Shown in pieces: positions 12,505-51,100 of a DNA stretch of 64,000 nucleotides. Below the pieces are notes generated by a model. It worked only from the letters and a program-made list of their open reading frames with translations. It did no database searches and had not been told where the DNA came from. Each line of letters begins with the position of its first letter. The first letter of the stretch is position 1. The DNA comes from a bacterium (GTDB taxonomy: Bacteria; UBP6; UBA1177): the NCBI GenBank assembly GCA_016290135.1, contig JAEESW010000001.1, positions 55,565-119,564 on the forward strand, given 5' to 3'. The position numbers were made by a program, and so were the translations under genes.

Positions 12505-14034
12505 ATGAGTAGTTTGCAGAAACTCGCTACTTCAAAAAAACTGGCTGTAATCATCACATATATTTCGCTGATAGTTCATACTTTAAGCAATTTAGTCCTT
12601 ACGCCGCTCTATTTGAATTATCTCGGTCTGGATCAGTATGGTCTTTATCAGATGATTTATACGGTCGCAAGTTATATCCTTATTCTTGATTTCGGCATAA
12701 ACACTGCGATGGTGCGCTATATCTCCAAATATCATGCTACTAACGACTATGAATCTGAGAAGAATTTTTCGGCTCACTGTCTGATCACAGTCGCTACCAT
12801 TATTGTTTTGATGATGGCGGCCGGCCTTATAATGAATGAGTTTTTGTTGGACATATACCCCACAATAACAGCTGAAGAGGCTGGTGTTGCCCATCAGCTG
12901 ATGCTACTGATGCTTGTCGTTGTTTCCGGAACAATATTGGAAAGATTTGTGTCTGGATGTGTATCTGCGTATGAGCATTTTACGGTCAATAATGCGGTAG
13001 GTGTTGTGAAATTAATATTAAAAATCCTTCTGACGATACTATTCCTTTATATCGGTATGGGAGTGATTGCGGTTGTCTTGGTAGATGTGATAGTGATACT
13101 TTTATCAATCATGTTTCGTTCAATATACGCAATCAAACAGTTGCATTTCAAAATTAAGTTGAGCAAGTTCGATTTTACTCTGATCATAGACCTCATTTCC
13201 TTTATGTTTCCCGTTTTTCTTCAGGCCATTATCGGCTATATAAATAATTATGTTGACAAGACAGTGCTTGGTATCATGACATCTAAAGCAGATGTCGCGA
13301 TATATTCGATCGCTACGACTTTCATAGCCTTGTTTAACGCATTGCCTTCCGCTATTTCAGGAGTCTTTTTGCCTAAAGCGACCAAGATGATATTCGGTGG
13401 AAGTTACAACAGTGATGATCTCACGAATTTTGTTATCCGACCAGGCAGATACCAGTTTATGCTTTGCGGAGGATTTGTGTGCGGATTCGCTTTGTTCGGC
13501 AGAGAATTCATCAGTCTGTGGGCCGGACCGAATACTGTTCAGGCATGGACTGTCGCGATGATCATTATTATCCCGAATATGATCCCGTTGATTCAGAATA
13601 CGGCAGTAAGCATTCTGGATGCACTCAAAAAGAGACTTTTCAGATCAGTTGTGCTCTTTGTTGTCTCTGTAATCCATGTCATAATCTCTGTTTTTCTTGT
13701 TGAAAGATACGGGATGATGGGTGCTCCGATTGGCTCGGCGTTTGCATTTATTATCGGATATGGAGTGGTAATGAATATCTATTATCAAAAAGAAATAAAA
13801 ATTCAGGTCGGAAGACTCTTTAAAACCATTTTCTCAAAAACATGGCTGTGTTTGATACCTGCGGTCGCTGTCGGATTTGTCAGCAACAGATTTTTGCCGG
13901 ATTATTCCTGGATCACTTTGGTTGTAAAAGGCGCCGTTTTTAGTGCGGTTTACGGAGTCGCCTTGCTGTTTTACGGATTTAACAATCAAGAAAAAAAGGA
14001 TTTTTCAATCATACTGAAGAAATTCGGAAAGTGA
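12505..14034 (+). CDS. wzx: Oligosaccharide flippase (Wzx, MOP superfamily)
   Basis: 509 aa with about 12-14 TM helices. Typical position as the last gene of the polysaccharide operon. Confidence 0.85.
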   Translation: MSSLQKLATSKKLAVIITYISLIVHTLSNLVLTPLYLNYLGLDQYGLYQMIYTVASYILILDFGINTAMVRYISKYHATNDYESEKNFSAHCLITVATIIVLMMAAGLIMNEFLLDIYPTITAEEAGVAHQLMLLMLVVVSGTILERFVSGCVSAYEHFTVNNAVGVVKLILKILLTILFLYIGMGVIAVVLVDVIVILLSIMFRSIYAIKQLHFKIKLSKFDFTLIIDLISFMFPVFLQAIIGYINNYVDKTVLGIMTSKADVAIYSIATTFIALFNALPSAISGVFLPKATKMIFGGSYNSDDLTNFVIRPGRYQFMLCGGFVCGFALFGREFISLWAGPNTVQAWTVAMIIIIPNMIPLIQNTAVSILDALKKRLFRSVVLFVVSVIHVIISVFLVERYGMMGAPIGSAFAFIIGYGVVMNIYYQKEIKIQVGRLFKTIFSKTWLCLIPAVAVGFVSNRFLPDYSWITLVVKGAVFSAVYGVALLFYGFNNQEKKDFSIILKKFGK

Positions 14035-14066
14035 GTTTGAGGAAGGGAAATAATGTGCCAGATAAT
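14021..14066 (+). repeat. Direct repeat copy C (core CGGAAAGTGAGTTT at 14025-14038, spanning the wzx stop)
   Basis: Hand alignment gives about 30/42 identity to 15825-15866, and the 14-nt core is identical. Confidence 0.6.
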
Positions 14067-14094
14067 TTTGTAGTTAAATAAAAGGAGTATTTCT

Positions 14095-15792
14095 ATGAGT
14101 TATAGTGCAGAACAAAAAACAGTGAGACATTTGTTAACTTCGCAATTATATAGAATCCCGCGTAATCAACGTAAATATGTTTGGGATAAAGATAATTGGG
14201 AAGATTTATTTCTGGATTTAAATTTTGCAACAAAAAATAACTTGAGCCATTTTATTGGAAGTATGGTACTGTTAAAAGATGAAGAAACAGTCGAAGGACT
14301 TCCTCTATTGGTTGTAATAGATGGCCAACAGAGATTATTTACAATCACAATTTTTTTGGCAGCTTTATTGTTCGTCATGAAAAAATATAATTTACAAAAT
14401 GATTATTATGGAACAGAAAAGTATCTTTATGCCACGGATGATAAAAATATTTCACATCATGTTTTTGAATCATCCTATCATCTTGGTCTTGGCAAAATTT
14501 TGACTGCAATACCAAATTTGAAGTTTGGGAGGAATGTTTCCATTGATTCATTCCTTAAAACACATGTTGCGGACAAAATACGTGATAAAAATATAATGGA
14601 TGCCTTCTCTTTTTATGTGGGTAAAATTGAAGAATTTATATTACAACGAAAAGATGATCCCCAGAGTATAACTGTATTAAAGGATGCTATACTTAATACT
14701 GAATATGTTAGAATAGAGGCAACAACTGAAGAGGATTCTTATACTATTTTTGAAATATTGAATGCCCGTGGTCAAACTTTGGCAGATCATGAATTGTTAA
14801 AAAATTATGTTATGAGATATATAGAGCCGAAAGAAAAGGTCGATAATGTAAAAACAGAATGGGAAGATACGGAAAAACTATTGGGACGCGGTATAAATAA
14901 ATATCTTTTACATTACCTGATTCATAGATATAAGGTCGATGAGAATGATAAAAAAGATGCTTATAAAGCAATAAAAAAATATGTGAAAATAACAGATATA
15001 GAATCATTCTATTCTGATTTTATTCAGAAAGCTCAATATTATTCAAAGTTACAGAATCCAAGATTGGTAGACGGTGACGGTAACGAAATTTGTTCAGATT
15101 TGGAGTATTCAATATTTACTTTTTTTAGGAAAAAAAGACAGGAACAATTTCGGCCAGTTATCCTCAGTTTGATGCATCAAAAAGAATTGGGCGAGTTGCC
15201 TATTGAAGAGTATGAGCAAGCATTGGAATTTATTAAAAACTTTTTTGTATGTTATACTATAATCGGAAAAGCAAAATCAAATACGCTTACTTCTATAATA
15301 TCTAGCTATGCGTTTAAATTGGAAAACTCTTTTTCATCAGATTTGTTAAGGGAATTTTTTAAAAGTTTAAAAGATAGGATTCCGAATAAAGATTGGTTTG
15401 AAAAAGCTTTCTCTATGATTGGTTATTCACATCATTTTAAGTTTTATAATGATGATAAGGAAGAAAAAAAGGCAAGATTGGTCTTGGAAATCTATGAAGA
15501 ATCTTTAGGTAATAAAAATATGCCTAAAGAATACACTATTGAGCATATTTTGCTAGATTCTGATGGAGAACAAAATTCCAATATAGGGAATTTGTTACCT
15601 TTAGAGGAAGGTCTAAATAAAAAATGTGCCAATTTGCCTTTGAAAGATAAAATTAAAATTTACAAAAAATCTGATTTTAAAAGCGTAAGAAGATTTGTTG
15701 ATCGATATGAGAATAAAACGGATACCTTTAAAGTAGAAAAGAGAATGTCGCATTTGGCAACAGAATTTTATAAAATTATTAATAAGGCATAA
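14095..15792 (+). CDS. GmrSD-family type IV restriction-like nuclease (DUF262 N-terminal, DUF1524 His-Me finger C-terminal)
   Basis: 'YRIPRNQRKYVW' and 'VIDGQQRLFTITIF' (DGQQR) are DUF262 motifs. The C-terminal 'YTIEHILLDS...NIGNLLPLEEGLNKKCANL' is DUF1524-like. Confidence 0.85.
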   Translation: MSYSAEQKTVRHLLTSQLYRIPRNQRKYVWDKDNWEDLFLDLNFATKNNLSHFIGSMVLLKDEETVEGLPLLVVIDGQQRLFTITIFLAALLFVMKKYNLQNDYYGTEKYLYATDDKNISHHVFESSYHLGLGKILTAIPNLKFGRNVSIDSFLKTHVADKIRDKNIMDAFSFYVGKIEEFILQRKDDPQSITVLKDAILNTEYVRIEATTEEDSYTIFEILNARGQTLADHELLKNYVMRYIEPKEKVDNVKTEWEDTEKLLGRGINKYLLHYLIHRYKVDENDKKDAYKAIKKYVKITDIESFYSDFIQKAQYYSKLQNPRLVDGDGNEICSDLEYSIFTFFRKKRQEQFRPVILSLMHQKELGELPIEEYEQALEFIKNFFVCYTIIGKAKSNTLTSIISSYAFKLENSFSSDLLREFFKSLKDRIPNKDWFEKAFSMIGYSHHFKFYNDDKEEKKARLVLEIYEESLGNKNMPKEYTIEHILLDSDGEQNSNIGNLLPLEEGLNKKCANLPLKDKIKIYKKSDFKSVRRFVDRYENKTDTFKVEKRMSHLATEFYKIINKA

Positions 15793-15797
15793 TGTAG

Positions 15798-15866
15798 TAC
15801 CAAACAAAAACCAGATAGAGTTGGCGGAAAGTGAGTTTATGGTGGCGAAATAAGGCGAAAGCGGAA
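15798..15866 (+). repeat. Direct repeat copy A, starting 6 nt after the GmrSD stop
   Basis: 'TACCAAACAAAAACCAGATAGAGTTGGCGGAAAGTGAGTTT...'. Its 5' part matches copy B (16652-16702) and its 3' part matches copy C (14025-14066). Confidence 0.65.
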
Positions 15867-15915
15867 AAGGAACCAAATGATTGATGTCTGGAAAATGTGA
15901 ATGGAGGGAGATGAA

Positions 15916-16651
15916 ATGGGAAAGAAAAAGTCTTCGAGGGTAATATCAACTGCAGATGTTGAAATGGCGCAAAATTGCAAAATTGTGCTTCCTAGGAAGC
16001 ATAGGGAAGATATTGATCCGTATCAAACATTTTCTGCCAATATTGAAAGAGCAGAATATTTTATTGAATTATACAAACAAAAGATAAAAGTGAGGGCCTG
16101 TAAGGGACGCCCGCCAATATCTGATACTGATATGCTTAGGGCAGGGGTGGTTTTTTTTACACTCCACAGTGGAAGAATATTTGAGAACAATTATTAGACG
16201 GCGCAAAATTTCCTTGTTGAAAAGTAATGAATCTTGGAACGATGTATTGCGGGATGTTTCTCTTCCTGGCAGAAATTACGGAAAATCAACTGCAGCAAAA
16301 ATAGAGCTAAATGAATTGTTTGAATACAAGGATAAGACTGTTTTGGAGTTGGTTCAGGACGCTTTAAATGAAAAGGTGGATTATTTAACATTTAATGACT
16401 ACTCTCAGATTGTTAATTCTTTGAAATCAGTGGGAATAAGGTTGCCTAGCAAAGATAAAGAAATAGATTGCGAAAGTATAAATTCCTATATAAAAAGACG
16501 TCATAAAATTGTCCATGAAGCAGATAAAAACGAGATTGCAGGAAAAGGTAACTATCGCACTCAATCAATTAATTCTAATCAATTAAAAAAATGGGTTGAG
16601 GCGGCAAAAGTTCTTGTCGATAAAATTAATGAAATATATGCGCAATTATAG
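15916..16651 (+). pseudogene. HEPN-superfamily protein (Rx4H 'RHKIVH'), reading frame broken at a T8 run (16151-16158)
   Basis: Track ORFs 15901-16197 (frame 1) and 16169-16651 (frame 2) overlap. Frame 2 is open from 16094. Removing one T from the T8 run joins '...DMLRAGVVF' to 'LHSTVEEYLRTIIRRR...' as one ORF of about 245 aa. The second ORF has no good start (GTG, no RBS). Confidence 0.6.
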
Positions 16652-16702
16652 TGCCAAACAAAAACTGGATAAAGATTCGGCGGAAAAGGGAAAGTGAGTG
16701 TA
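16652..16702 (+). repeat. Direct repeat copy B, starting immediately after the HEPN stop
   Basis: 'TGCCAAACAAAAACTGGATAAAGATTCGGCGGAAAAGGGAAAGTGAGTGTA'. Hand alignment gives about 38/45 identity to copy A, with a 7-nt insertion. Confidence 0.65.
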
Positions 16703-16795
16703 GGTAAACCCCGCTTCTTTTCTCTGGGAACGACCTGATATTTTTCTGACCTTTCTTTGTTTAAAAAAATCTTAATTTTTTTTCAAAAGAGACCC

Positions 16796-16823
16796 TTGAA
16801 ACTGGGGAAAGTGTGTCTATAAG
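16796..16823 (+). promoter_or_regulatory. Putative sigma70-type promoter of the CBASS-like operon
   Basis: TTGAAA (16796-16801), 16-nt spacer, TATAAG (16818-16823). Lies about 50 nt upstream of ATG 16871. Confidence 0.4.
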
Positions 16824-16870
16824 AGACGGCATGATTTTCACAAAAGTGGAGTCAGAGGAGTTTTTGGGGG

Positions 16871-17707
16871 ATGAGGAAGTTGATGAACAAAATTGTAGAC
16901 TGGAAAAGAGAATACGTACAAACAGCATTGTTGACTTTAATTATTGTCGCCAATGTCTGTTTTAATTTACCTGAAATTGCGAAGAACGTATTAGCAGATG
17001 CCTCAGTTCAAATGTCTGAACTAGATCCTAAATGGCGTCTTGCTATTGGTTTTGGTCGATGGGTATTTGCTATAGTTGTTGTTGTAGGATTATGGTTTGT
17101 CATCAAATATTTCAATAAGGATTATGTCTTAAAGCAAAATATTTCCAATGATATAGTCTGGCATACATATTTTGATTACTGGTTTTGTCGGTATTTTTTG
17201 AGCATAAAAAAGTTGTCTTTGACCAGAATGCCGATACCTATGCAGTTTAAGCTCGTGTGGAAGGATCTCTTTTTAGAGTATGATTATATGGACGGCATCA
17301 CAGAAAAGGAAGAGGCTAAGGATAAGGTAAAAGTTGAACGATTTCAGGATAATCCTCTGACATCTACAGTTAACCTTGTTCTTGCAGATACCTACCCGCT
17401 GGATTGGAAAAGCAAGCTCCCTGCATCGGTCCTAAATCTTACGACTATTGTGATAGACCGCACAGGTGAGAAAGGCACTAGATACTATAGTCGGGATTTT
17501 GTAAAAAAGATTTCATCAACAGTACATGATCTTCCAAACAATGTGACGACGATCAACCTGTTTGCAACGATTAATGCTGCTCACTGTTACCATATAACAA
17601 AGGAGGTGTTTATGACGGGAGGCAGAGACTCGCTGAAGCATCTTGTCGTCTATGAACAATCAAAGGGTAGTTGGGTTTTTGAGGGGAAGAATATAAAAGT
17701 GTTTTAA
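16871..17707 (+). CDS. Two-TM membrane protein with an unassigned C-terminal domain of about 190 aa; candidate CBASS effector/sensor (SAVED/CARF-like?)
   Basis: Hydrophobic helices 'TALLTLIIVANVCFNL' and 'WVFAIVVVVGLWFVIKYF'. The C-terminal segments 'VNLVLADTY' and 'TINLFATINAAHCYHITKEVF' look like Rossmann-like beta-strand/loop elements. The gene ends 11 nt before the CD-NTase gene. Confidence 0.45.
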   Translation: MRKLMNKIVDWKREYVQTALLTLIIVANVCFNLPEIAKNVLADASVQMSELDPKWRLAIGFGRWVFAIVVVVGLWFVIKYFNKDYVLKQNISNDIVWHTYFDYWFCRYFLSIKKLSLTRMPIPMQFKLVWKDLFLEYDYMDGITEKEEAKDKVKVERFQDNPLTSTVNLVLADTYPLDWKSKLPASVLNLTTIVIDRTGEKGTRYYSRDFVKKISSTVHDLPNNVTTINLFATINAAHCYHITKEVFMTGGRDSLKHLVVYEQSKGSWVFEGKNIKVF

Positions 17708-17718
17708 GGAGATTAAAA

Positions 17719-18888
17719 ATGGCATACTCGAAAGAACAGTTAGAACGTATTTTTAGTGATTTGGCTGCCAGGATAAATATTAGCGATGCCCTATTCAAAG
17801 TAGCAGATGAAGAGTACACAGCCTTGGGCAAATGGATCAATAATGAAACAGAAAAGAATGGCACGAAGTATAAAGTTCTCATATATCCTCAGGGGTCGTT
17901 TGCTTTAGGAACAGTAATCAAGCCGATATCTGATGAGGATGATTATGATCTGGATCTGGTATGCCTGGTCGAGAACGGTATGAACTTTTCTGCTAAGCAG
18001 TTGAAGTTGGATGTCGTGAAACCTTGGCTTATAGGATATAAGAAAACCAAGAATGACATTGAAGAGAAAAGGCGTTGCTGGCATTTGGAGTATGAGGATG
18101 TTCCACACTTCCACATGGATGTTATTCCTGCAATACCGAGTCCTTTTCCCAACTCTGATAGTACAATTAGCATCACGGATAAAAATGTCGATAGATCTCC
18201 GGTTTATGAATACCAAGAGAGCAATCCCAAAGGGTATGTACAATGGTTTTTTCAACGCTGCCGCCAGAAGAAGATGGGAAGTTCTGGCCTGGAGGTTATG
18301 AGCGAGATGGCTCAACAGGAGGATTTGAAGCGAAATAAGAATAAGACACAACTTCAGAAAGCTGTACAAATTTTGAAGCGTCATAGAGATGTAATGTTTA
18401 AGGACGATCCAGACAACAAGCCTATCTCTATCATTATTACAACTCTCGCTGGTCAGATATATCATGGAGAAACTACTATTCTTGATACGCTTCTTGGATT
18501 TGTTGGAGAAGTAGAGCACTATCTGAAATCTCATTGCAAAGAAGATGGCAGCTATAGTATTCCAAATCCGAGTTATAATGGTGAAGATTTTGCAGACAAA
18601 TGGAAAGATCATCCGGAGAGGCAAACTGCATTTTTCTCTTGGATTAAACAGTTGCAGTCTGATTTCAATCTTGAAAATCTTATGAACCAAGATCGTGTAG
18701 CGATGGGCAATATCGTAAAAGAAGCATTCGGCTCTACCACAGGAAAAGCAATATTCAGCCAAATGGGATATGAAGAAGCTAATGAAGTTAAAGATGGAAT
18801 TCGGAAAGTTGACACAGTAACAGGTAATTTATCAAAAACCGGAATAGTGGCCATTTCTCCAAGTAGGCATTATGGCGAGATTCAATAA
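17719..18888 (+). CDS. cGAS/DncV-like nucleotidyltransferase (CD-NTase, SMODS-type)
   Basis: 'YPQGSFALGTVIKP' (GS motif), 'DDYDLDLVCLV' (DxD) and 'FHMDVIPAIP' (third acidic residue). 389 aa. Sits between a TM protein and an E2-like protein. Confidence 0.8.
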   Translation: MAYSKEQLERIFSDLAARINISDALFKVADEEYTALGKWINNETEKNGTKYKVLIYPQGSFALGTVIKPISDEDDYDLDLVCLVENGMNFSAKQLKLDVVKPWLIGYKKTKNDIEEKRRCWHLEYEDVPHFHMDVIPAIPSPFPNSDSTISITDKNVDRSPVYEYQESNPKGYVQWFFQRCRQKKMGSSGLEVMSEMAQQEDLKRNKNKTQLQKAVQILKRHRDVMFKDDPDNKPISIIITTLAGQIYHGETTILDTLLGFVGEVEHYLKSHCKEDGSYSIPNPSYNGEDFADKWKDHPERQTAFFSWIKQLQSDFNLENLMNQDRVAMGNIVKEAFGSTTGKAIFSQMGYEEANEVKDGIRKVDTVTGNLSKTGIVAISPSRHYGEIQ

Positions 18889-19327
18889 ACCTATTACCTT
18901 GGCACAGCAAGAGATTAAGCTGAGAAAGGTATATCCCAACCTCATTGATAAAATTAGTGTGTCACGCAATGAATTGAGCTGTGTAATGAGGCTTCAGCCG
19001 ACTGCAGAAAGCAGAGAATATAAGGTAAATATTAGGTTCAAAATTGGATCTTGGCCCAAAGTAAAACTGGTGGATCCCAAAGAAATAGTTTTGGTAGACG
19101 GGAAGAAGCCACATCATCTTTACGGCAGAAGTGTTGATGGTGGGGAAAGGCTTTGCGTGTTTTATCCTAAGGACTGTGGGTGGACGGATAACCACTTCTT
19201 GGCAGATACATTTGTTCCATGGGTAATCACTTGGTTGAGTGCTTATGAGATCTGGCAAATTACAGGTGTTTGGGTCTATCCAGAATATGTTGATGGTAAG
19301 CCAAAGCAAGATCAAACTAAGGACTAG
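18872..19327 (+). CDS. Minimal E2 (UBC)-like protein, Cap2-short-like
   Basis: 151 aa. 'KKPHHLYGRSVDGGERLCVFYP' mimics the E2 HPN-x(n)-Cys active-site region (H81/H82, C95). 'FVPWVITWLSAYEIWQITGVW' follows. The start overlaps the CD-NTase 3' end by 17 nt. Confidence 0.5.
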   Translation: MARFNKPITLAQQEIKLRKVYPNLIDKISVSRNELSCVMRLQPTAESREYKVNIRFKIGSWPKVKLVDPKEIVLVDGKKPHHLYGRSVDGGERLCVFYPKDCGWTDNHFLADTFVPWVITWLSAYEIWQITGVWVYPEYVDGKPKQDQTKD

Positions 19328-19396
19328 AGATTTCGTATATTCCGTCCTAATGACAAACAAAATTTTTAACATCCCCATCTTGAAATGAGGTTTGAT

Positions 19397-19419
19397 GCAG
19401 GAATTATTAATTCCCCTGC
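19397..19419. terminator. Possible bidirectional hairpin between the convergent E2-like and HEPN genes
   Basis: GCAGGAATTA-T-TAATTCCCCTGC is an imperfect stem with a 2-nt bulge. It overlaps the last codons of the minus-strand ORF. There is no clean T-run. Confidence 0.3.
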
Positions 19420-20291
19420 TGTTTTAGGAAATACAGCAAAACCGTGTTAAGGACATCCGTAAAAAGCCAAAGCATCCTGGAAACAAAAAGTGGAGTTAGC
19501 ATTTCTTTGTCGATGTTCTTCCAATGTGCTAATGAATTCCGGATGTTAAGCCCTATACCATTAGACTCAGATAAGAGAAATTGAAGACTTTTCAGATGAT
19601 CATAATTAAAAATTTGTTCTATTTTTTTGTCCCAAAGCAATGTCCCGAGAGTTTTTCCGCTTTTGTTTTTATTTTTATTTTTGTCTCCTTTCTTTGTTTT
19701 ATCATCTTTTTCTTCAGGTATATTTTTGCTTTCATTTACATATGCTATTCTCAACAATTTTTCGATTATAGCACATGTCAGGCTTTCTATGGTGTAGCAC
19801 ATGGAATGCAATACTATTTCGGGACACTTATTCTGATTTCTGAGGATATATTCTAAGTTTTCGTGCAAAAAATCGACATCTTTTAATAAATTCTCGTCGT
19901 TGCTGGTTTCTTTATTGATAAGAGAAACGATGTTCTAAATTGATGCTATGTATTTATTCAAAGCATCGGGGCGGCTCATAAATCCCTCTAGTAAACCAGA
20001 ATACATTACAGAATATGCTAACAGCTGTGTTTTGCGCTCAACTGTAAAATACGGGTCTTTGTCTGGTTTGTCATTGTTATATTCTGGTATCGAATTTAAA
20101 ACTGCTATCAATTCTTCATGAACATTATCCGCGAGATAACTGATATATTTAGTATCTCCGTCTTTAATTTCTTTGTGATGAGTGATTTCAAGTAGTTGTT
20201 CTTCGAGTGGTAAGTTTGGATCGAGATTTTCTATCCATCGTTCCAGAAGATAATTCAAATTGCGCTTAGGCTGATTTTCTTGATCTGTCAT
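19407..20291 (-). pseudogene. HEPN-superfamily protein ('NIRNSLAH', DUF4209-like RNxxxH) interrupted by a single in-frame TAG (19935-19937)
   Basis: Track ORFs 19935-20291 and 19407-19868 are in the same frame. The 22 codons between them (NIVSLINKETSNDENLLKDVDF) contain no stop. The downstream ORF begins only at TTG with no RBS. The upstream ORF has AAGGAG 7 nt before ATG 20291. The combined reading frame is 294 codons. Confidence 0.6.
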
Positions 20292-20478
20292 AACAAAACT
20301 CCTTTTTTCAATAACAATAATCTGTTCTCTTTGTTTTCATTCCAAATATACATTGTGTTTGAAAACGCCATTATAAATAAGCACTTTCCCTTGAAGTCAA
20401 GAGGCTGACATGGATTCTTACGTATAAATTTTGGTGAAGTAACAAATTGTGACTTCACCAGATTCGACAACACCTCAT

Positions 20479-20508
20479 GACTGAGAGGACGGAGCTGTCA
20501 CAAATCGA
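20479..20508 (+). repeat. Copy 1 of the short motif pair GACTGAGAGGA / GGAGCTGTCACAAATCGA
   Basis: The same two blocks recur in swapped order at 21560-21588 (GGAGCTGTCGCAAAGCGA/CTGAGAGGGA). Confidence 0.5.
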
Positions 20509-20555
20509 TAAATGAAAAATTTAAAATTCGGTTAAAATAAAAATCTAAAAATAAT

Positions 20556-20583
20556 TTGACTTTTAAAAATAAGTGACTATATT
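20556..20583 (+). promoter_or_regulatory. Putative sigma70-type promoter of the MNT/HEPN operon
   Basis: TTGACT (20556-20561), 16-nt spacer, TATATT (20578-20583). Confidence 0.55.
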
Positions 20584-20591
20584 ACTTCCAT

Positions 20592-20669
20592 CGGTGAGTC
20601 CTACCGTTAAGTGGAATCTTTAAAAGCAGTGAACCCTACTGTGAGTGGGAACTTTAAAAGCGGTGAGAA
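20592..20669 (+). repeat. Tandem direct repeats (35 nt, 34 nt and a 9-nt partial) in the 5' leader of the MNT/HEPN operon
   Basis: R1 is CGGTGAGTCCTACCGTTAAGTGGAATCTTTAAAAG (20592-20626). R2 is CAGTGAACCCTACTGTGAGTGGGAACTTTAAAAG (20627-20660). The partial CGGTGAGAA runs into ATG 20670. Hand alignment gives about 26/35 identity. Confidence 0.7.
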
Positions 20670-21011
20670 ATGAACAAGAAGATGATTGACAGCGCGATGA
20701 AGGACCTCGCGGCTGAAGCAAAAAACATATACGGTGAAAAACTGAAAGAAGTGATTCTTTTCGGTTCTTGCGCAAGAGGCGATTTCGAGGATGACAGTGA
20801 TGTTGATATAATGATCCTTCTCGATGTGCCGAGAAGCGAAGTCGAAGAAGCCAATCACAAAATGGGTTCCGTGATAAGCAGACTTGATAAAAAATATGAA
20901 TACGAACTTCTGTTTTCCCCCATTGTGCAGAGCTACAGCGAGTTCAATTACTGGATCGAAGCCCTTCCTTTTTATCAAAATGTCCGTAAAGAAGGCATAA
21001 GGTATGCGTGA
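20670..21011 (+). CDS. Minimal nucleotidyltransferase (MNT) antitoxin of an MNT/HEPN pair
   Basis: 'ILFGSCARGDFEDDSDVDIMILLD' (GSxxRG...DxD). 113 aa. Overlaps the HEPN gene by 8 nt. Confidence 0.85.
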   Translation: MNKKMIDSAMKDLAAEAKNIYGEKLKEVILFGSCARGDFEDDSDVDIMILLDVPRSEVEEANHKMGSVISRLDKKYEYELLFSPIVQSYSEFNYWIEALPFYQNVRKEGIRYA

Positions 21012-21417
21012 AATCAGCCAGCAGGCAAAAGATTTGTCGATATATCGACTGGAAAGAGCGAAAGAAGACTGTACCGCTGCCGAAAACAATTTAGGGCTTA
21101 AAGATCTCAGAACTGCAGTAAACCGCGCATATTATGCTATATTTCATGCTTTGAGAGCGGTTCTGGCACTTGACGAATACGACTCTAAGAAACACAGCGG
21201 AATCATAAGCGAATTTCGTCTGCGCTATGTCAAAACCGGCATTTTCGACGAAGAAATATCCGATATGATCGGCAAAGCATTCCAGGTAAGGAACAAGTCT
21301 GATTATGAAGATATGTACATCGTTAGCAGAAACGATACCGAAATTCAGATACGAAACGCAAAAACTATTATTGACGCGGTCGAAAAATATCTGAAAGACG
21401 AAAAAATAATCGGCTGA
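21004..21417 (+). CDS. HEPN-domain toxin of an MNT/HEPN pair
   Basis: 137 aa and all-helical. 'AYYAIFHALRAVL' and 'FQVRNKSDYED' are classical HEPN (PF05168-type) motifs. Confidence 0.85.
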   Translation: MREISQQAKDLSIYRLERAKEDCTAAENNLGLKDLRTAVNRAYYAIFHALRAVLALDEYDSKKHSGIISEFRLRYVKTGIFDEEISDMIGKAFQVRNKSDYEDMYIVSRNDTEIQIRNAKTIIDAVEKYLKDEKIIG

Positions 21418-21492
21418 ATCAGTGATTCTGATATCGAAATCCTCTCGCTTTTCCTAAAAAAATCAGTATAATGCAGCGGTTTGACCTCTTTG

Positions 21493-21588
21493 CCCTCTCC
21501 GTCAGCCTTTGGCTGCCACCTCTCCCTGAGTGAGAGGCAAGCTTGGCTCCCACTTTGGGGGAGCTGTCGCAAAGCGACTGAGAGGGAG
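21493..21588. repeat. Imperfect palindromic intergenic element of about 95 nt (copy 2 of the GGAGCTGTC.CAAA.CGA / CTGAGAGGGA motif)
   Basis: Outer arms CCCTCTCCGTC (21493-21503) and GACTGAGAGGG (21576-21586) match 10/11 as reverse complements. Inner hairpins are CCTCTC-N7-GAGAGG (21519-21537) and GTCGC-AAA-GCGAC (21566-21578). Confidence 0.55.
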
Positions 21589-42102: not shown

Positions 42103-45100
42103 ATGAGAAAGATTTTTTGTGTACTTGTACTGTTATGTTCAATGTTTTTCATGCTGAGCTGCGGCGGCGGCAGCACGGAAAACACGCCGGCACAAGACGG
42201 TGACGCAGTAAGCGACGAAGATGCCGTCACGGACGAAGATCAGACCGACACTGAAAACACCGATACAGACGATACCGGCGATACGGTTGACGACACTTCC
42301 GACACGGAAGAACCTGATGGCGACACAGACAGCGGTGACAACAACAAGAAGCAGGGCGAGCTTTACGGCAGGTGCTATCCGAACAAAACCTGCAACGAAG
42401 GGCTTGAGTGCGATGAAGAAAACGATACATGCATAAAAAAGCAGAAAGACGATTCCGACACTTCCGATACAACTGACGACACCGACACTTCCGATACAAC
42501 TGACGATTCCGACTCAGACACTTCGGATACCGGAACAACGGATAACGATATACCGGGCGGTGACAATGATAACGAAACTCCTGACAACGACACTCCTGAA
42601 AATCTTGAAGCAACCGAAAACCACAAAATCAGCGGTTCATACCAGATCGGCAGCAATGTTTCGGGAATCGAGACAGCCCTTTATGAATGCGGCGGAACCG
42701 AAAAAATTGCTTACGGAAACACTGACACAAAAGGAAAATACAGTTTCAATGCTGCGATTTCGGCAACGAAGACTTACTGCGTAAAAGCGGGAGATTTTGC
42801 AAGCTGTTTCATTGGTATGAGCGACCACACGGCGAACATTTCGGAAATCACGAACGCGGTTGCACTCGTCAATTCTGACTGCTCTGATTTAAGAGCAGGT
42901 GAAACAAAAATCAGAAAATACGCAAAACTGGGAACCGGCGAATGGCTGGGCGAGCTCGATTACTCGAAACTTTCCGGCATCAAAGAAGGGCTCAAACTTC
43001 TTTCAAACTATCTCAACACGACAAACAGTAAAACGCTTTCTTCAAAAATAGCTGAAGATGCAAAGAAAGAAACTCCTGAATTCGCGAAATTCTTCAACGG
43101 TTTCAGGGTTTTTGCCGATAAGGCAGAAATAATCATAGGTGAAACCTCTGACAGCAGTGCAAATTTTGCTGTTGAAGGCGGCAGCACCAAAGTTGCACAG
43201 GGCTTCAAAATCCAGTGGACTTTGAAAAACAAATCGGCTGAAGCCGCTGTCTACAAATTCACAACTTCCGCTCCCGGCGAATATGTTGCAAGAGCAAAAC
43301 TCGTTTACAGCGGCACCACCCTTTCAGATGATTCAACAAGCGTTCTTTTCCTTCAGAGAAAGAGCGGCGGCACAGTTTATCTGAATAATAAATCGAAAAA
43401 TATTTCGTTCAGAATCGATGACGGTATTTACGGCGTCATTCCTAAGAATACTGTTGTTAAAAAGAACGGAAGTCCTGTAAATTCAATTAGTTACGATGTT
43501 CTCTCGGCAGGCGGGAATCAGGTTTCGCGTCTTAAATTTTATCCTGAAGGCGCAGTTTTCGAGGGCGACACGATGTACTTTGTCCACGAGCTCGGCACTG
43601 TTTTCGGCGGCGACCCGATTATGCTTTCGGCAAAGAGAACAAACGCAAACGGCACAGTCGATGTGCTCAATTCCGCGGCGGGCGACCCGATTATGATGGC
43701 TGCGGCAGGAGATCCCATCATGACAACAGCTGCCGGTGACCCGATCATGCAGGCTGCTGCGGGCGATCCGATTATGACTTCGGCTGCCGGTGATCCGATC
43801 ATGACGGCTGCGGCAGGAGACCCGATTATGACTTCGGCAGCGGGCGACCCCATAATGACCTCAGCTGCCGGCGATCCTATAATGTCGGCTGCGGCAGGCG
43901 ACCCGATCATGACAAGTGCGGCAGGTGACCCGATTATGACGAGCGCAGCAGGTGATCCGATCATGATGGGAACAAGCTCAAGTGCCATGATTTCCCAGAC
44001 AGGCCACTACTCAACATTCACGGTTGAAGCGGCATCCCTTCCTGTTTCAGTTGAAGCTATGGTTGCAAGATGGTGCGACGGCTCATTCTACCGCGGATAT
44101 TCACCTCTTGAGTTCATAAAAAAAGGTGTAACGGACAACAATCCTGAAAGCACTCTTCTTCCGTATCTCACCTGCGAAAAGTTCGGTGATCTCGGAAACG
44201 ACCTTTACGAGCTTATGAACAAACAGATCGGCTTCCAGAGAAACCTCAATCTTTTCGAGAACCTTTTCTTTGTAAACGAGTTCTACAACCGCATGAATGC
44301 AAAGCGTGAAAGCGGTGCAGTTGCTGCGGTTAAGAACGGTCTTGAATTGCGTAGCGCAATAGCTGCTCTCTACACGGCAACGACTTCCTACAACAGAAGC
44401 ACGACTCTTGCCTACATGTTTGATTCGTCAATGATTCCCCTGACTTACAGCGGCGTAATTCCTGAAGATTATACGTCAAAGGCAAAGAGTGCAGTCACCG
44501 GAAATTCAGATTCGGGTGATAAATACACCGCAACGAAGAAAGAAATGATGATTTTTGCGAACTACATCACAACTTCTTCAAAAGGACCGGACTTCAACAA
44601 CGTTTCCTCTGTTCTTAATCCTGACCAGCTTGTCTGCGCATGGTTCAATCCCGACACACCTGCCCAGAACTGCAACAAGGTTTACACAATCAACGATGCA
44701 GGTCATGTAACTTTGGGCGGAACAGAAGTAAGCGTAGCAGAAGCCAATGCAATCTTTACAAAATACTTCATGCCGATGAACAGCAGACTCAGTGATTCAG
44801 AAAAACTCGACCTTTTCAGAACGCTCTACCTCGCACTCAAATACGCTGGAACAATATTCTATAACGGCAGCGACATCGAAGAGCTCAACGGAAAACTTCT
44901 CAAAACTGCATACCTTGTTTTTGACGGAATTGACGGCAACGCAAAAGCAGTCAGCATAGTTGATTCTTTCGACGCTTCTGCTCACACGGTGCAGGTTCTT
45001 GACGGCAATGAAATGGCGACAAGACCTTACATCCAGAAGCTGAGCACACTCACTGATCAGATTTCACTCAAAGTTGCTGCATCGAGTGCAGATGTTGAAA

Positions 45101-48100
45101 AAGTTCTAATCAGCATCGAAGGAAAAGAATTTGAAAAAGTTCAGGAAAATACGAGGACTTACTACAAACAAACCGGTGATCTCAAGGAAAAATCTATAAT
45201 TCTCACTCCCGGCACACTTTCGCAGGGCGAAAAGGCTCTCAAAGACCTTCTTGGCAGCGAAAATGTCGATTCACTCGGCAACATCACCGGAAAAATGACG
45301 ATAGTCGCTAACTCCAAGATCTCGAACAAAACCTATTCGACTCAGAAAACCTACGAGTTCTTCGTCAACAATGACGGTGACGGCGTCAATTCAAAGGAAG
45401 TTCCGGCAGATCTCGAGATTTTTGTCAATGATTCAACAGGTCATCCGGTTCCCGACAATGCAAATCCGATGATAATCCTGAATCCCGGCAACAAGGTTTA
45501 CTATCCTGTTGACGGCAGAGTCAGCATAGAAAACCTTACTCCTGCGGCATACACAGTTGATGCATTTGCTGACGGATATTATGCAAAGAGCACAAGCGTA
45601 AATGTTCCTGCCGGCGCAGCATTCAGCGTTGAGATCAGGCTTGACGAAGAGCTTACAAGCACAGCTGATGCTAGCCTTGAGCTTTCTGTAACAATTGATA
45701 CGGCAAAACATCCGTCGAAAGTTTACATCCAGATTTACAACGACGACATGGAACTTGTTGCAAACGAAGCGGCTAAATTCAGCGATGAAACCGGCACTTA
45801 CAAAAATGTAAATATTGAAATCAATTCAGGCAGATACACACTTCTCGCAGTAGGTGAAGAGCTTTACAATTACCTTGAAGCAATCACGCTTTACGAAGGT
45901 GCAAACACTAAGGAAATCAAGGTTGTAGCAAAGAACGCATGCGGAAACGGCATAGTCGATTCAGCAGAAGAGTGCGAACCGGCACTTGCAGCTCCTGTTT
46001 CCTGCGGAACGATCTATCCGGCTTCGACCCATCCTGAAAAAACTGCGACATGTGATCCGAATACATGCACGTTTGACAAGCAGGAATGCGGAAAAGCGGC
46101 ATACTGCGGCGACGGCATCCTTGATGCAGGCGAAGGCTGTGACGGCGGAGCAAAAGACTGCTCAGAAATAGCAGGCTTCGGCAATTCAAGAGGCACGGCA
46201 CCGTGCAAAAATGACGACTGCTCGGGTTACATCACTGCAAACAACTGTACAAGAACGACAGCTTCATGCGGAACACTTCCTGCAAACGCACAGTGGAATG
46301 ACGGCGAAGGGACATTTGCACAGACTTATGACGGCACAGACTGGGCTCCTACTGCAAAAGCGGCTAACTACGGTCTCACAACGGAAGAATGCACATCCTC
46401 GTGCACAAAAGGCTACAAGTGGAGCGGCAGCCAGTGCCTTGAAAGCCCGCTTTCACTTGCACTTGTCTGCACAGGTGAAACCGATTGCTTCGACAGCAGC
46501 TCAGCAACCGAATGTCCTGCTTACGGAGAGGCATTCTTCGGTCAGGACGCACAGTATGCAGAAAACGGCTACTGCACGAAGCACGACTTCACGACAAGCG
46601 GCAGCGGTGACAACCAGATTGTAAAAGACAAGTTTACGCACTACGAGTGGCAGGCGGTTTCATCAGGCAATGTTACCTGGTCAGAAGCCGAAACATACTG
46701 CTCGCGTCTTGAAAACGGCAGTTCGACGGCAGTCTGGAGAGTTCCGACGCCGGCAGAGTTGCTCACAATTGTTGACAGCAGCAATGCAAGCCCGGCACTT
46801 GACAACAACTACTTCACTGTTTCGGGTCACACATTCTGGGCAAGTGAAGATAAGAAAAATACGGAAAACGCTTGGAGAATTGATGAAAACGGTGCACTGA
46901 CAAGTGTTGCAAAAACGGAAAGCCATCATGTTCTCTGCGTAAGAGTAAATGACTACGATGCAACTGAAAACCGCTTCACTGCAACTGATGAGACTGTAAA
47001 AGATAATGAGAGCGGCTTAATGTGGCAGAAACAGGCGGTTGCTTCAAGAACATGGGCAGAAGCTCTCAACTACTGCGAAGAAGTTTCCATGGCAGACAAG
47101 TTTGACTGGAGACTCCCGAACAGAAACGAACTTGCGTCCCTTGTTGACTACACGAAAGCAAACGGCACAATGAGTGATTTCCCGTCAATAGCTGCAAAAG
47201 GTTTCTGGGCTTCGACAACAGATATCAATGCAGCGTCAAAGGCATGGACAGTCGATTTTGCAGACGGAAGCATCAAATCCGCAGATAAGACTGACACGAA
47301 GTACATAATATGCGTAAGAAACGACGAGCCGTGCTTCGGCGATGAATGCGCTGATCCGTGCGGCTTTGCTCCATGCAAAAACATGGCAAATTCGACAGGT
47401 CTCTGCACGGCAGGCGACTACGATTTCACATGCGGCTGCAAATCGGGCTTCAACTGGAACCACGCAAAGTGTCTCCTTGACACGACAAGATATGTTGCAT
47501 GTGACGGTCTGCCTGAAAACGCGATCTGGAACACCGTTTTCGGTATCAGCCAGACTTATGACGGCGACAAATGGTATCCGAGCAATATCGGTACATTCAA
47601 CAAGATTTCAAGCAACGTTGAATGCCGCTTTGTCTGCGCAACCAACTACAAATGGGATGCAGATGAAGAAAAATGTCTTCCGGTTTCAAGAGTTGCGAAC
47701 TGCTCTGAAAAGAAACCCTACTCCGACTGGAACGTAGTTTACAAGATCTCTCAGACATGGGACGGCGAAAAGTGGGAACCTTCGGCAGAATCTGAATACA
47801 ACCCTGAATCAAGCGAAGAAGAATGCCGCTTTGTATGTAAGGAACACTACAACTGGGACAGCGAAAACAATCTCTGCGATCCTGAGAGACAGCCGGCGGC
47901 ATGTACAGGACTTCCTGCAAACGCAGTCTGGAACAGCGCTACGATAGAGCAGACATGGAACGGCACGTCTTGGGCACCGACAGCAACAGGAACCCACACA
48001 ACCGGCAATGCAACCGACAAATGCTATTTCAAGTGCATTGACGAAGGTGACAAGTACGAATGGAAAAACGGCGCATGTTCCGCGAAACCGAAAACGGCTC

Positions 48101-51100
48101 AGTGCGCAGGCCTTCCTGACAACGCAGAATGGACAGGCGGATATTCAAGCATAACGCAGACATGGAACGGAAGCGAATGGTTCCCGGGCAATGCAGGAAC
48201 TTACAACACAGAAATAAATTCCGCATACTGCCGCTTCAAATGCCTTGCAAACTACAACTGGAACGGTTCGACCTGTGAACCGAGAACACAGATAGTAACC
48301 TGCGGAACACTTCCTGCCAATGCGGTTTGGAACACAGTTTCACAGATCAGGCAGACTTGGAACGGTTCGGAATATACACCTGCGGTAAATCTGATATACA
48401 GTGAAACTTCAAGCGAAAGTGAATGCCGCTACACCTGCAAAGAAAACTACGAATTTAAAAACGACGCATGTGTCGCAAAGAAACAGACTGTTGCCTGCAC
48501 CGGACTTCCGGCAAACGCAGTATGGAACAGTACAACAGTCGTCCAGGAATGGAACGGCACGACATGGGCTCCCGAGACAACCGGAACCCACACAACCGGC
48601 AATGCAACAGACAGATGTTACTTCAAGTGTATTGATGAAAATGTCAAATTCGACTGGGATACGACAACCAGCACATGCAAAGGTCATACCAATTCAAATG
48701 TTGCCTGCAACAACAACTCAATTCCGGCAAACGCTTCATGGTGGAACGCAAATATCAACCAGACATGGAGCGGAACGGAGTGGCTTCCGACGACGACAGG
48801 CAGCTTCAGCAACAGTGCTGTTGATAACCAGTGCCGCTTCAAATGCAACAGCCACTACAGCTGGAACGGCGCGACATGCGAAGCAGAGACAAAGATTTCA
48901 TCCTGCGGAACACTTCCGGCAAATGCTGAATGGAACACCGCTTCAAGTATAGAGCAGCACTGGGACGAAAGTGCTTCCGGATTTACTCCGACTCTCACTC
49001 CGGAATACGGCACTGAGGCTACGACAGCTTACTGTCGCTTCAAATGCAAGGAAAATTACGAGTGGAAGAACGGTTCATGTCAGGCTAAGACAAAAACCGT
49101 TGCATGCACAGGACTTCCGGCAAATGCGGTATGGAGAACGAGCTCTTCTGGAACAGGCAGCTCATTCAGTATAACGCAGAGATGGAGCGGCACAGAATGG
49201 ACTCCGTCAACAACAGGAACACACGGCTCCTTCATTTCAGGTCAGTGCCGTTTCACGTGTGCTGATGAAGGCTATAAGTTCAAATGGGAGAACAACGCAT
49301 GCCTGCCGAACACAATCACAGATCAAGAGTGCGAAGGACTGCCCGACAACGCAGAATGGACAGGCGGTTTCTCAACTATATCTCAGACATGGAACCCGGC
49401 TACCAACAGTTTTGAACATGGTCTTTGGGCAACATTCGCTACCGAGGCGGATTCCGCTTACTGCCACTTCAAATGTAAGGAAAACTACACTTGGACCGGT
49501 CTTGAAGACGATACAGCCGATGACGGAGAATGCGTTGCAGACACAAGAAAGATAGATTGCAAAAATCTACCTGAAAACGCGGTATGGAACTACGTTCCGA
49601 CTATTACCCAAACTTGGGACGGCAGGGAGTGGCTTCCCAAACTTGAACCGAAATACAATGTTGTCGGAAGCGAAGATGAATGCCGCTATATCTGTGATGC
49701 AGGTTATTATCCGCTTGACGGCCAGTGTGTTGGCAATCCATGCAGTTACAGCCCGTGCAGCGGTATTGACTATGCAAGCGGAACATGTTTGGAAAATGGC
49801 AATCTGCTTCTTTCATACGCCTGTGAATGCAGCGGTGAAAACTACTGGTGGGGCAAGACCGGCTGCCGTTCACAGAATGCGGCTCTCGGAAATTTGTGTA
49901 CCGGTACTATTAAATGTTTCAATAACGGTGCTGAAATAGGCTGCCCGGAATCTTCGTCAGGAACCGGTGAAAACTATAATTTCTACGGTCAGGACGCATA
50001 CTATGCGGAAGCAGGTTTCTGCGCTCCCAAAAACTTCTCACTCATAGGAAGCGAGCCTTATACTATAACTGTTGACAATGCTACAGGTCTTATGTGGACG
50101 AAGAATCCTTCCGACTACCAAGGTGTGAGTGCTGCCAGAACTTACTGTTCAGAACTCAGTTACGGCGGTGAGACCGGCTGGAGACTTCCCTCCATCAAAG
50201 AGCTGATGACAATATTTGACAATAGTATGAGAAATCCTGCAGTAGACACGAAATATTTCAATATCGAAGACGATGTCTGGTCAACAACTCCTTTTGTAAG
50301 TGATTCGGAGGTTCCGAGTATTTGGATCTTCGACTCTGACAACGGCTATGTCGGCGCTATGCCAACTCTTATTTATACAGCGCCTGCCATTTGCGTAAAG
50401 GGAACTATGACAGAGAATCCGGTGTTTGGAACTATAGCAGGAACTAATGCCGTGGTCAAAGACAGCACAACAGAACTTTACTGGCAGAAAGGCTATGCAA
50501 CAGACAAAACATGGCAGGGAGCCATTGAATACTGCGAAAATCTGACGTTGGGCGAATATTCGGATTGGAGGCTTCCGAATTACAATGAACTTGCTTCTAT
50601 TATTGATTTCACCAGAAAAGATCCTGCCGTTAACACAACATATCTTAGTATGCCGACTAGCGAAACAGAGTATTTCTGGACTTCAACAACAAGACAAGAC
50701 TCTTCAGACAAAGCTCTTGCATTTGATTTTAAATCTGGTGCTCCAAAATCCAGTATCGTAAAATCAGAACTGAACTATGTCCGCTGTGTCCGCTCCGATA
50801 TCTGCGGTGAAGGAAAATTCCTGTCAGGTAAAAACTGTATCGATACCCCGTGTACTTCAAGTTCATGCTCTTCAGTCTCTTATTCAGACGGAATATGCAC
50901 ACCGCTTACTGAAAGCAAATACTCATGCGGATGCGTTGACGGATACACTTGGGAAAGCTCGACTTCAAGCTGCATACCTGATCCTTGCATTACCGACAAC
51001 GAGTGCGTTTCTATGGAAGGTTCAGACGGAATATGCACACCTGATGACGGAAAAATCAAATGCGGATGCGTTGACGGTTATTTCTGGAACGGTTCGAGGT

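Follow-up and report, generated by a model that had tools for sequence, protein, structure and literature searches.

The 64,000-nucleotide stretch analysed here (the window), from contig JAEESW010000001.1 of an uncultured bacterium of the UBP6 lineage, carries a compact three-gene operon that resembles an anti-phage signalling system based on cyclic oligonucleotides (CBASS). Specifically, the open reading frame (ORF) list places an effector gene of the SUa-2TM family at 16871-17707 (278 amino acids), the gene of a cyclase belonging to the nucleotidyltransferases that resemble cGAS and DncV (CD-NTases) at 17719-18888 (389 amino acids) and the gene of an E2-like regulator at 18872-19327 (151 amino acids), all on the plus strand. 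The effector and cyclase genes are separated by 11 nucleotides, a gap that holds an AAGGAG ribosome-binding site directly after the effector stop codon, and the cyclase and E2 genes share a 17-nucleotide overlap. This layout of three co-directional genes, including the gap, the overlap and every coordinate, exactly reproduces that given in an earlier note made from the sequence of the window without database searches. Translation of the effector probably begins at the second ATG, at 16883 (M5), rather than at 16871, because the database copy of the protein has 274 amino acids and the N-termini of the family align at M5.

Purifying selection acts on all three genes. Against relatives that are 82-86% identical, the effector has a ratio of nonsynonymous to synonymous substitution (dN/dS) of 0.21-0.30, the cyclase one of 0.41-0.43 and the E2-like protein one of 0.20-0.22. 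Two opposite-strand ORFs, at 17905-18762 and 18962-19378, have no family matches and were rejected as genes. Because the three plus-strand ORFs combine strong family matches with dN/dS values of 0.20-0.43, while the opposite-strand ORFs lack such matches, we take the three to be genes rather than chance reading frames. Upstream of the effector gene, an A/T-rich tract precedes TTGAAA (16796-16801, plus strand), a 16-nucleotide spacer and TATAAG (16818-16823). The same layout aligns upstream of the homologous operon in one relative (L013) and, more loosely, in a second (L012), and on account of this conservation we read it as a promoter-like element; a generic scan for promoters and terminators gave no enrichment over shuffled or chance expectation and lends it no support. 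Rfam and tRNA scans of the window returned no matches.

The first gene encodes a membrane protein whose soluble domain the earlier note could not assign to any CBASS effector class, a statement that the profile and fold matches overturn. The protein matches the Pfam family PF18179 (SMODS- and Ubiquitin system-associated 2TM effector domain, SUa-2TM) at 122.4 bits against a cut-off of 25 (2.9e-35), with residues 3-268 of 278 aligned to profile positions 4-268 of 279. In addition, it matches the PADLOC models 'Effector 2TM' (7.8e-55) and 'SAVED7--SAVED_TM' (4e-50). SUa-2TM is a published CBASS effector family; homologues of the present protein fall into 304 clusters (50% identity, E ≤ 1e-3) among 1.84 billion representatives, nearly all of 265-295 amino acids. 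In line with the two transmembrane (TM) helices proposed earlier, the hydropathy profile contains two hydrophobic segments, centred at 24-28 and 64-74, and none past residue 95. The Lys/Arg-rich N-terminus, the acidic loop and the basic stretch after the second TM segment suggest an N-in/C-in topology, which would place the soluble domain in the cytoplasm.

An AlphaFold2 model of the effector, built from 24 homologues, has a mean predicted local distance difference test (pLDDT) score of 87 and a predicted template modelling score of 0.83. When compared with the PDB by Foldseek, the model gave more than 50 matches at E ≤ 0.001, and all 50 of the 50 listed are SAVED proteins, among them Cap5, Cap4, CalpL, BtCap14 bound to 2',3'-cGAMP (cGAMP, cyclic GMP-AMP) and a 3TM-SAVED filament that is also bound to 2',3'-cGAMP. 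The best match has an E-value of 5e-7, with probability 1.0 and 185-200 aligned columns. As modelled, the sensor domain therefore has the SAVED (fused CARF-like) fold. Comparison with a viral fold library gave nothing relevant. The effector has no Pfam match to SAVED or Saf-2TM, and its placement in the Cap14/Saf-2TM family was rejected, as the BtCap14 and 3TM-SAVED PDB chains are matched neither by phmmer nor by a profile of 24 sequences.

The second gene encodes the cyclase. The profile searches proposed in the earlier note matched it to SMODS (3e-13; 50.8 bits against a cut-off of 26.5) and DncV-like_NTFase (1.3e-10; 42.5 bits against 24.9) in Pfam, and to the PADLOC cyclase models at 3.5e-110. 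Among solved structures, its sequence matches 9woo_A (1.4e-51), SmCdnG of Serratia marcescens (8hsb_A, 6.3e-26, residues 5-378) and BdCdnG (7ljn, 6e-16); the latter two, the named relatives among the significant PDB matches, both belong to clade G. The CD-NTase layout recognised earlier is present as QGSF (58-61), DYDLDL (75-80) and HMDVIPA (132-138), and alignment with QGSV and D84/D86 of SmCdnG marks G59-S60, D77, D79 and D134 as the catalytic residues. Additionally, S168 and Y173 of the segment SNPKGY (168-173) correspond to the SmCdnG lid residues S167 and Y172, a Ser and Tyr pair that has been termed CdnG-specific (PMC12948482). These features suggest a CdnG-like enzyme, putatively of clade G. 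Cyclases of E2-CBASS mostly belong to clade G and are longer than others (PMC12948482), and the length of 389 amino acids is typical in this respect. The family is large: of the candidates that were scored, more than 6,300 proteins reach E ≤ 1e-10. The C-terminus, within the E2-binding region, reads HYG386-EIQ, and nearly all of about 115 cyclase homologues keep an H-[YHF]-G motif with 0-5 residues after it. The counterpart of G386 is the conserved G406 of the Serratia enzyme, which forms the covalent link (bioRxiv 10.1101/2022.05.25.493364).

The third protein was described earlier as a bare E2 core, and we assign it as a stand-alone E2 from PADLOC, PDB sequence matches and fold. It matches the PADLOC E2 models at 1.3e-33 and SmE2 (8hsb_B) at 1.1e-13; in the latter alignment, C95, which sits in RLCVF (93-97), pairs with the catalytic C101, and H82 pairs with H87. 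H81, H82 and C95 are invariant in 22 homologues, while C102 is not conserved. The AlphaFold2 model has a pLDDT of 85, and its top Foldseek matches are SmE2 (8yjy_B and 8hsb_B; template modelling score 0.73, probability 1.0), followed by weak matches to UbcH5c and UFC1. The final ten residues are disordered and lysine-rich (K143, K145 and K150). The local copy of Pfam returned no family for this protein. For small CBASS accessory proteins such a null from this copy does not mean that the family is absent, because relatives of the protein carry the precomputed PF26395 (E2-CBASS). No E1 (ThiF) domain and no JAB peptidase were found in the flanking genes.

A scan of a genome collection gave nine close-relative loci, whose proteins are 44-86% identical to those of the window. 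The order effector, cyclase, E2 holds in all nine with similar spacing, while their neighbourhoods are unrelated (for example AAA_21/RloB, EcoRII/Vsr or a polysaccharide locus). Across CBASS as a whole the position of the effector varies. One distant SUa-2TM gene (30-35% identical; locus L004) stands last in a full type II operon, after the cyclase, Cap2 (Prok-E2_B plus ThiF) and Cap3 (JAB), and another of the same identity range (L010) follows a cyclase and one unknown gene. Other E2-only systems, found on plasmids, run cyclase, E2, effector; their effector is a phospholipase in the Bacillus and Clostridium cases and a large SAVED protein in that of Nostoc. In the classic Vibrio cholerae operon (capV-dncV-cap2-cap3), the effector gene itself stands first. 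The CapV paper (PMC12480259) contains no explicit statement of that order. The effector-first arrangement, which the earlier note had considered unusual, is therefore a fixed habit of this sublineage and not an oddity of the window. Both supposed oddities, the effector domain and the gene order, are explained by known families and known variation.

At two further loci, a distant SUa-2TM gene stands after genes for ThiF and JAB proteins, and no cyclase gene is annotated or was detected beside it. The first lies on the Ruminococcus albus plasmid pRUMAL01 (L001), where the neighbour is brxL on the other strand; at the second (L006) a serine recombinase gene takes this place, and the ThiF protein is a short one. 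Either these loci are type II CBASS in decay, or they are ubiquitin-like systems that lack a cyclase and use the same effector.

Taken together, these results make it highly probable that the three genes form a type II short (E2-only) CBASS operon acting by abortive infection, lodged with a few other defence genes in an island that interrupts a locus for polysaccharide synthesis. The operon contains a CD-NTase with the GS...[DE]xD...D signature and an adjacent effector that joins a sensing and a killing module, in the form of a SAVED fold and two TM segments. It also contains the hallmarks of E2-CBASS, namely a stand-alone E2, its cysteine with an upstream histidine, and a C-terminal glycine on the cyclase. 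The identification of a CBASS with an E2-only protein proposed in the earlier note is thus borne out by Pfam, PADLOC, PDB sequence and fold matches. The operon is intact in gene content, gene order, catalytic residues of cyclase and E2, the conserved C-terminal glycine and the 2TM, SAVED-fold effector.

The closest described counterpart is the plasmid-borne type II CBASS pUCCL620_247/246/245 of Lactococcus lactis, whose anti-phage activity has been confirmed in Lactococcus (PMC11381338). Its components are the same and, in the published sizes, nearly match those of the window: 286 against 278 amino acids for the SUa-2TM protein, 383 against 389 for the SMODS CD-NTase and 155 against 151 for the E2. 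Its genes are likewise listed in the order effector, cyclase, E2 (PMC11381338). The Lactococcus system belongs to a Firmicute and a plasmid, whereas the present operon is chromosomal and comes from an uncultured bacterium. By analogy with this nearest precedent (PMC11381338), the operon is predicted to protect against phage via a cyclic oligonucleotide signal.

For the chemistry of the cyclase and E2, the guide is the characterised Serratia marcescens E2-CBASS, which consists of SmCdnG, SmE2, Exo and 2TM-SAVED (PDB 8hsb/8yjy; bioRxiv 10.1101/2022.05.25.493364; PMC12948482). According to the same two papers, this system makes 3',2'-cGAMP; its E2 processes the cyclase C-terminus at the conserved glycine, joins this end first to C101 and afterwards to a lysine in the E2 tail, and brings about poly-conjugation of the cyclase; and the system no longer protects when the catalytic aspartates or the glycine of the cyclase, or C101 or H87 of the E2, are mutated (bioRxiv 10.1101/2022.05.25.493364; PMC12948482). 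In a count of 616 E2-only systems, 74% had a cyclase of clade G, and these cyclases exceed the others in length (PMC12948482). The cyclase of the window resembles SmCdnG over nearly its full length, and the E2 resembles SmE2 by sequence and fold. Both systems share the catalytic cysteine and histidine, the C-terminal glycine and the C-terminal E2-binding region, and the Serratia effector is also a 2TM protein with a SAVED-type sensor. The two differ in that the identity between the E2 proteins is low (about 28-29%), three residues follow the C-terminal glycine here and one in Serratia, and the effector gene stands first here, whereas the Serratia papers name the effector last of four genes.

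Two other kinds of CBASS share part of this design. Full type II CBASS (CD-NTase, Cap2 E2-E1, Cap3 JAB and effector) likewise regulates the cyclase through its C-terminus by means of a ubiquitin-like enzyme, and distant SUa-2TM proteins serve as its effectors, as in the L004 locus described above; in contrast to the present operon, it has an E1 domain and a JAB peptidase, and its SUa-2TM gene is last, not first. Cap14 (Saf-2TM plus SAVED; PDB 9om7), a chloride-selective channel gated by 2',3'-cGAMP (PMC10402079), resembles the present effector in having a TM N-terminus and, after it, a sensor of SAVED fold in the cytoplasm (probability 1.0 in Foldseek), and the logic of a nucleotide-gated membrane effector is probably common to both. 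However, Cap14 belongs to another Pfam family with no similarity at the sequence level, is predicted to have three TM helices, carries a SAVED domain of larger size, and occurs in two-gene type I systems with CdnB.

On this basis we propose the following mechanism, in which a covalent adduct between cyclase and E2, first a thioester and then an isopeptide, is predicted by homology. As in Serratia, C95 of the E2 would attack the tail of the cyclase at G386 and cut off the three residues beyond it (EIQ), and the cyclase would be held first as a thioester and then through an isopeptide bond on a lysine of the E2 tail. This linkage would restrain the cyclase, and infection would permit cyclase-cyclase conjugation and hence higher activity. 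By the same analogy, the product of the CdnG-like cyclase would be a cyclic dinucleotide, with 3',2'-cGAMP or another cGAMP isomer the most likely. Judging from the topology and the SAVED fold, the signal would bind the 2TM protein (N-in/C-in) at its SAVED-like domain in the cytoplasm, and this protein may then oligomerise and open or disrupt the inner membrane, so that the infected cell would be stopped before it releases phage. Least secure in this scheme are which signal is made and what kind of lesion the membrane suffers. The match to the NCBIfam cGAMP-synthase equivalog lies far under threshold. On signal and killing mechanism, the caution of the earlier note holds for this SUa-2TM subfamily.

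Several observations weigh against the E2-CBASS assignment or parts of it. On the side of the effector, neither phmmer nor a 24-sequence profile run against the PDB gave a sequence-level match to any solved structure, and the soluble part comprises about 195 amino acids as against about 255-262 for isolated Cap5 and Cap14 SAVED chains in the PDB, so that ligand binding and oligomeric form may differ. For the cyclase, the suggested clade G membership derives from the nearest solved relatives and two lid residues, and the closest solved structure, 9woo, is labelled merely 'cyclic GMP-AMP synthase'. Furthermore, the cyclase reaches 69.9 bits with the NCBIfam equivalog 'CBASS cGAMP synthase', whose cut-off is 150, and because this match is below threshold the product cannot be named from NCBIfam. 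Finally, the E2 tail has lysines but no histidine equivalent to Serratia H152, and the exonuclease gene of the Serratia system is absent from the operon.

The alternative that survives best keeps the architecture and changes the chemistry: the signal would be something other than 3',2'-cGAMP (2',3'-cGAMP, another dinucleotide or a trinucleotide), and the effector would be a selective ligand-gated ion channel like BtCap14 instead of a general disruptor. We regard this as possible, though not probable. The best solved relative of the cyclase is 9woo and not SmCdnG, the fold matches of the effector include the BtCap14 SAVED domain and the 3TM-SAVED filament, both with 2',3'-cGAMP, and Cap14 is a 2',3'-cGAMP-gated chloride-selective channel (PMC10402079). 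However, the cyclase keeps the CdnG-type Ser and Tyr of the lid, the characterised E2-CBASS cyclase and the Asticcacaulis CdnG enzymes make 3',2'-cGAMP (bioRxiv 10.1101/2022.05.25.493364; PMC8568899), and the effector has no sequence similarity to Cap14. A more far-reaching suggestion starts from the compact SAVED-like domain of about 195 amino acids and the TM module, sequence-unrelated to Cap14, of the SUa-2TM proteins in this E2-only sublineage. It holds that their signal recognition or membrane damage would be novel for CBASS, with the effector-first order reflecting a need to have the effector made earlier than the cyclase-E2 pair, or in larger amounts; we consider this rather unlikely.

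Apart from these variants within CBASS, the E2 might carry out true ubiquitin-like tagging, attaching the cyclase, or some other substrate, to proteins of the phage or the host and not acting mainly on itself and the cyclase. CBASS with E1-E2 and JAB proteins does conjugate cyclases to other targets (cited in PMC12948482 and PMC11153139), and the E2 fold and the catalytic Cys/His are intact. Yet no E1 is encoded nearby, and the Serratia homologue, which needs no ATP or cofactors, acts on the cyclase tail and its own lysines, which makes general tagging very unlikely. An inactive remnant within a decaying island is suggested by the frameshift in the adjoining HEPN gene described below and by the dN/dS of about 0.42 of the cyclase, the highest of the three genes; against this, all three ORFs are full length, the catalytic residues are intact, dN/dS is below 0.5 for each gene and the promoter-like element is conserved upstream, and decay is accordingly highly improbable. 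The earlier note had also allowed for a 389-amino-acid protein outside the SMODS profiles, an unrelated Pol-beta nucleotidyltransferase such as AbiEii. Such an enzyme, or an MNT-type toxin-antitoxin component, would take the operon out of CBASS altogether, a reading that can practically be dismissed, since nothing beyond the common Pol-beta fold superfamily favours it and the protein scores above the gathering thresholds of SMODS and DncV-like NTase, its sole Pfam families, has no AbiEii or NTP_transf_2 match, reaches the PADLOC cyclase models at the E-value given above and aligns end to end with SmCdnG.

A stretch of low GC content at about 14000-21500 (30-40%, as compared with 45-54% in the sequence around it) holds the E2-CBASS operon; it is bordered by a Polysacc_synt flippase gene on one side and by UDP-sugar dehydrogenase genes on the other. 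In the relative L012 (88% identical), the same flippase and CBASS cassette occur, separated from each other and followed by other genes, with LicD upstream and AAA_15 and DUF3226 downstream; because this locus combines the same flippase and cassette with different genes, we read the stretch as a defence hotspot of variable make-up in a polysaccharide locus. Contigs in two other public assemblies or metagenomes are 99.99-100% identical to the window.

Directly upstream of the operon within the island, a plus-strand gene at 14095-15792 encodes a GmrSD-family protein of 565 amino acids (GmrSD_N plus GmrSD_C; PADLOC HEC-06, 6.7e-60), probably a type IV restriction enzyme for modified DNA. Between the two lies a HEPN RiboL-PSP gene (15901-16651), which is split into ORFs of 98 and 160 amino acids by a frameshift at a T8 run (16151-16158). 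Removing one T yields a protein of 249 amino acids that covers positions 4-189 of the 191-position Pfam profile and matches it at 3.6e-14 as against 1e-9; the T8 run is also present in two other assemblies. Downstream of the operon, a minus-strand gene at 19407-19868 encodes a DUF4209 (EMARD_N) protein of 153 amino acids with weak PADLOC matches to PDC-S39 and Csm6. It pairs with a minus-strand gene at 19935-20291 (118 amino acids, no family) in an arrangement described as convergent, and the two are possibly another small defence module. Further along, a plus-strand nucleotidyltransferase gene (NTP_transf_2/Polbeta, 113 amino acids, 20670-21011) overlaps a plus-strand HEPN gene (137 amino acids, 21004-21417), and the pair (20670-21417) is a typical MNT-HEPN toxin-antitoxin module.

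The motif GGAAAGTGAGTKTR has three exact copies in the 64-kb window, all on the plus strand, as against 0.12 expected. One (14026-14039) is at the flippase stop codon, and two (15826-15839 and 16689-16702) lie about 35 nucleotides past the GmrSD and HEPN genes. A second repeat, of 26 nucleotides, also follows these two genes (15795-15820 and 16649-16674). The arrangement looks like single-gene cassettes inserted serially at one site, each with a copy of the site. The motif was not found in the relatives L012-L019. Elsewhere in the window, a plus-strand ORF at 42103-52020 encodes 3305 amino acids with six Lcl_C domains (8.8e-136) and is probably a giant surface protein; Lcl_C proteins adjoin the CBASS cassette in the relatives L013-L016.

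The operon adds one more chromosomal E2-CBASS with a SUa-2TM effector, from an uncultured bacterium, and challenges nothing in the current understanding of CBASS. For the SUa-2TM class, the proof of function at the level of the operon comes from Lactococcus, and any well-behaved member of the class could serve work on ligand, structure and mechanism. In this respect the practical value of the present operon is modest.

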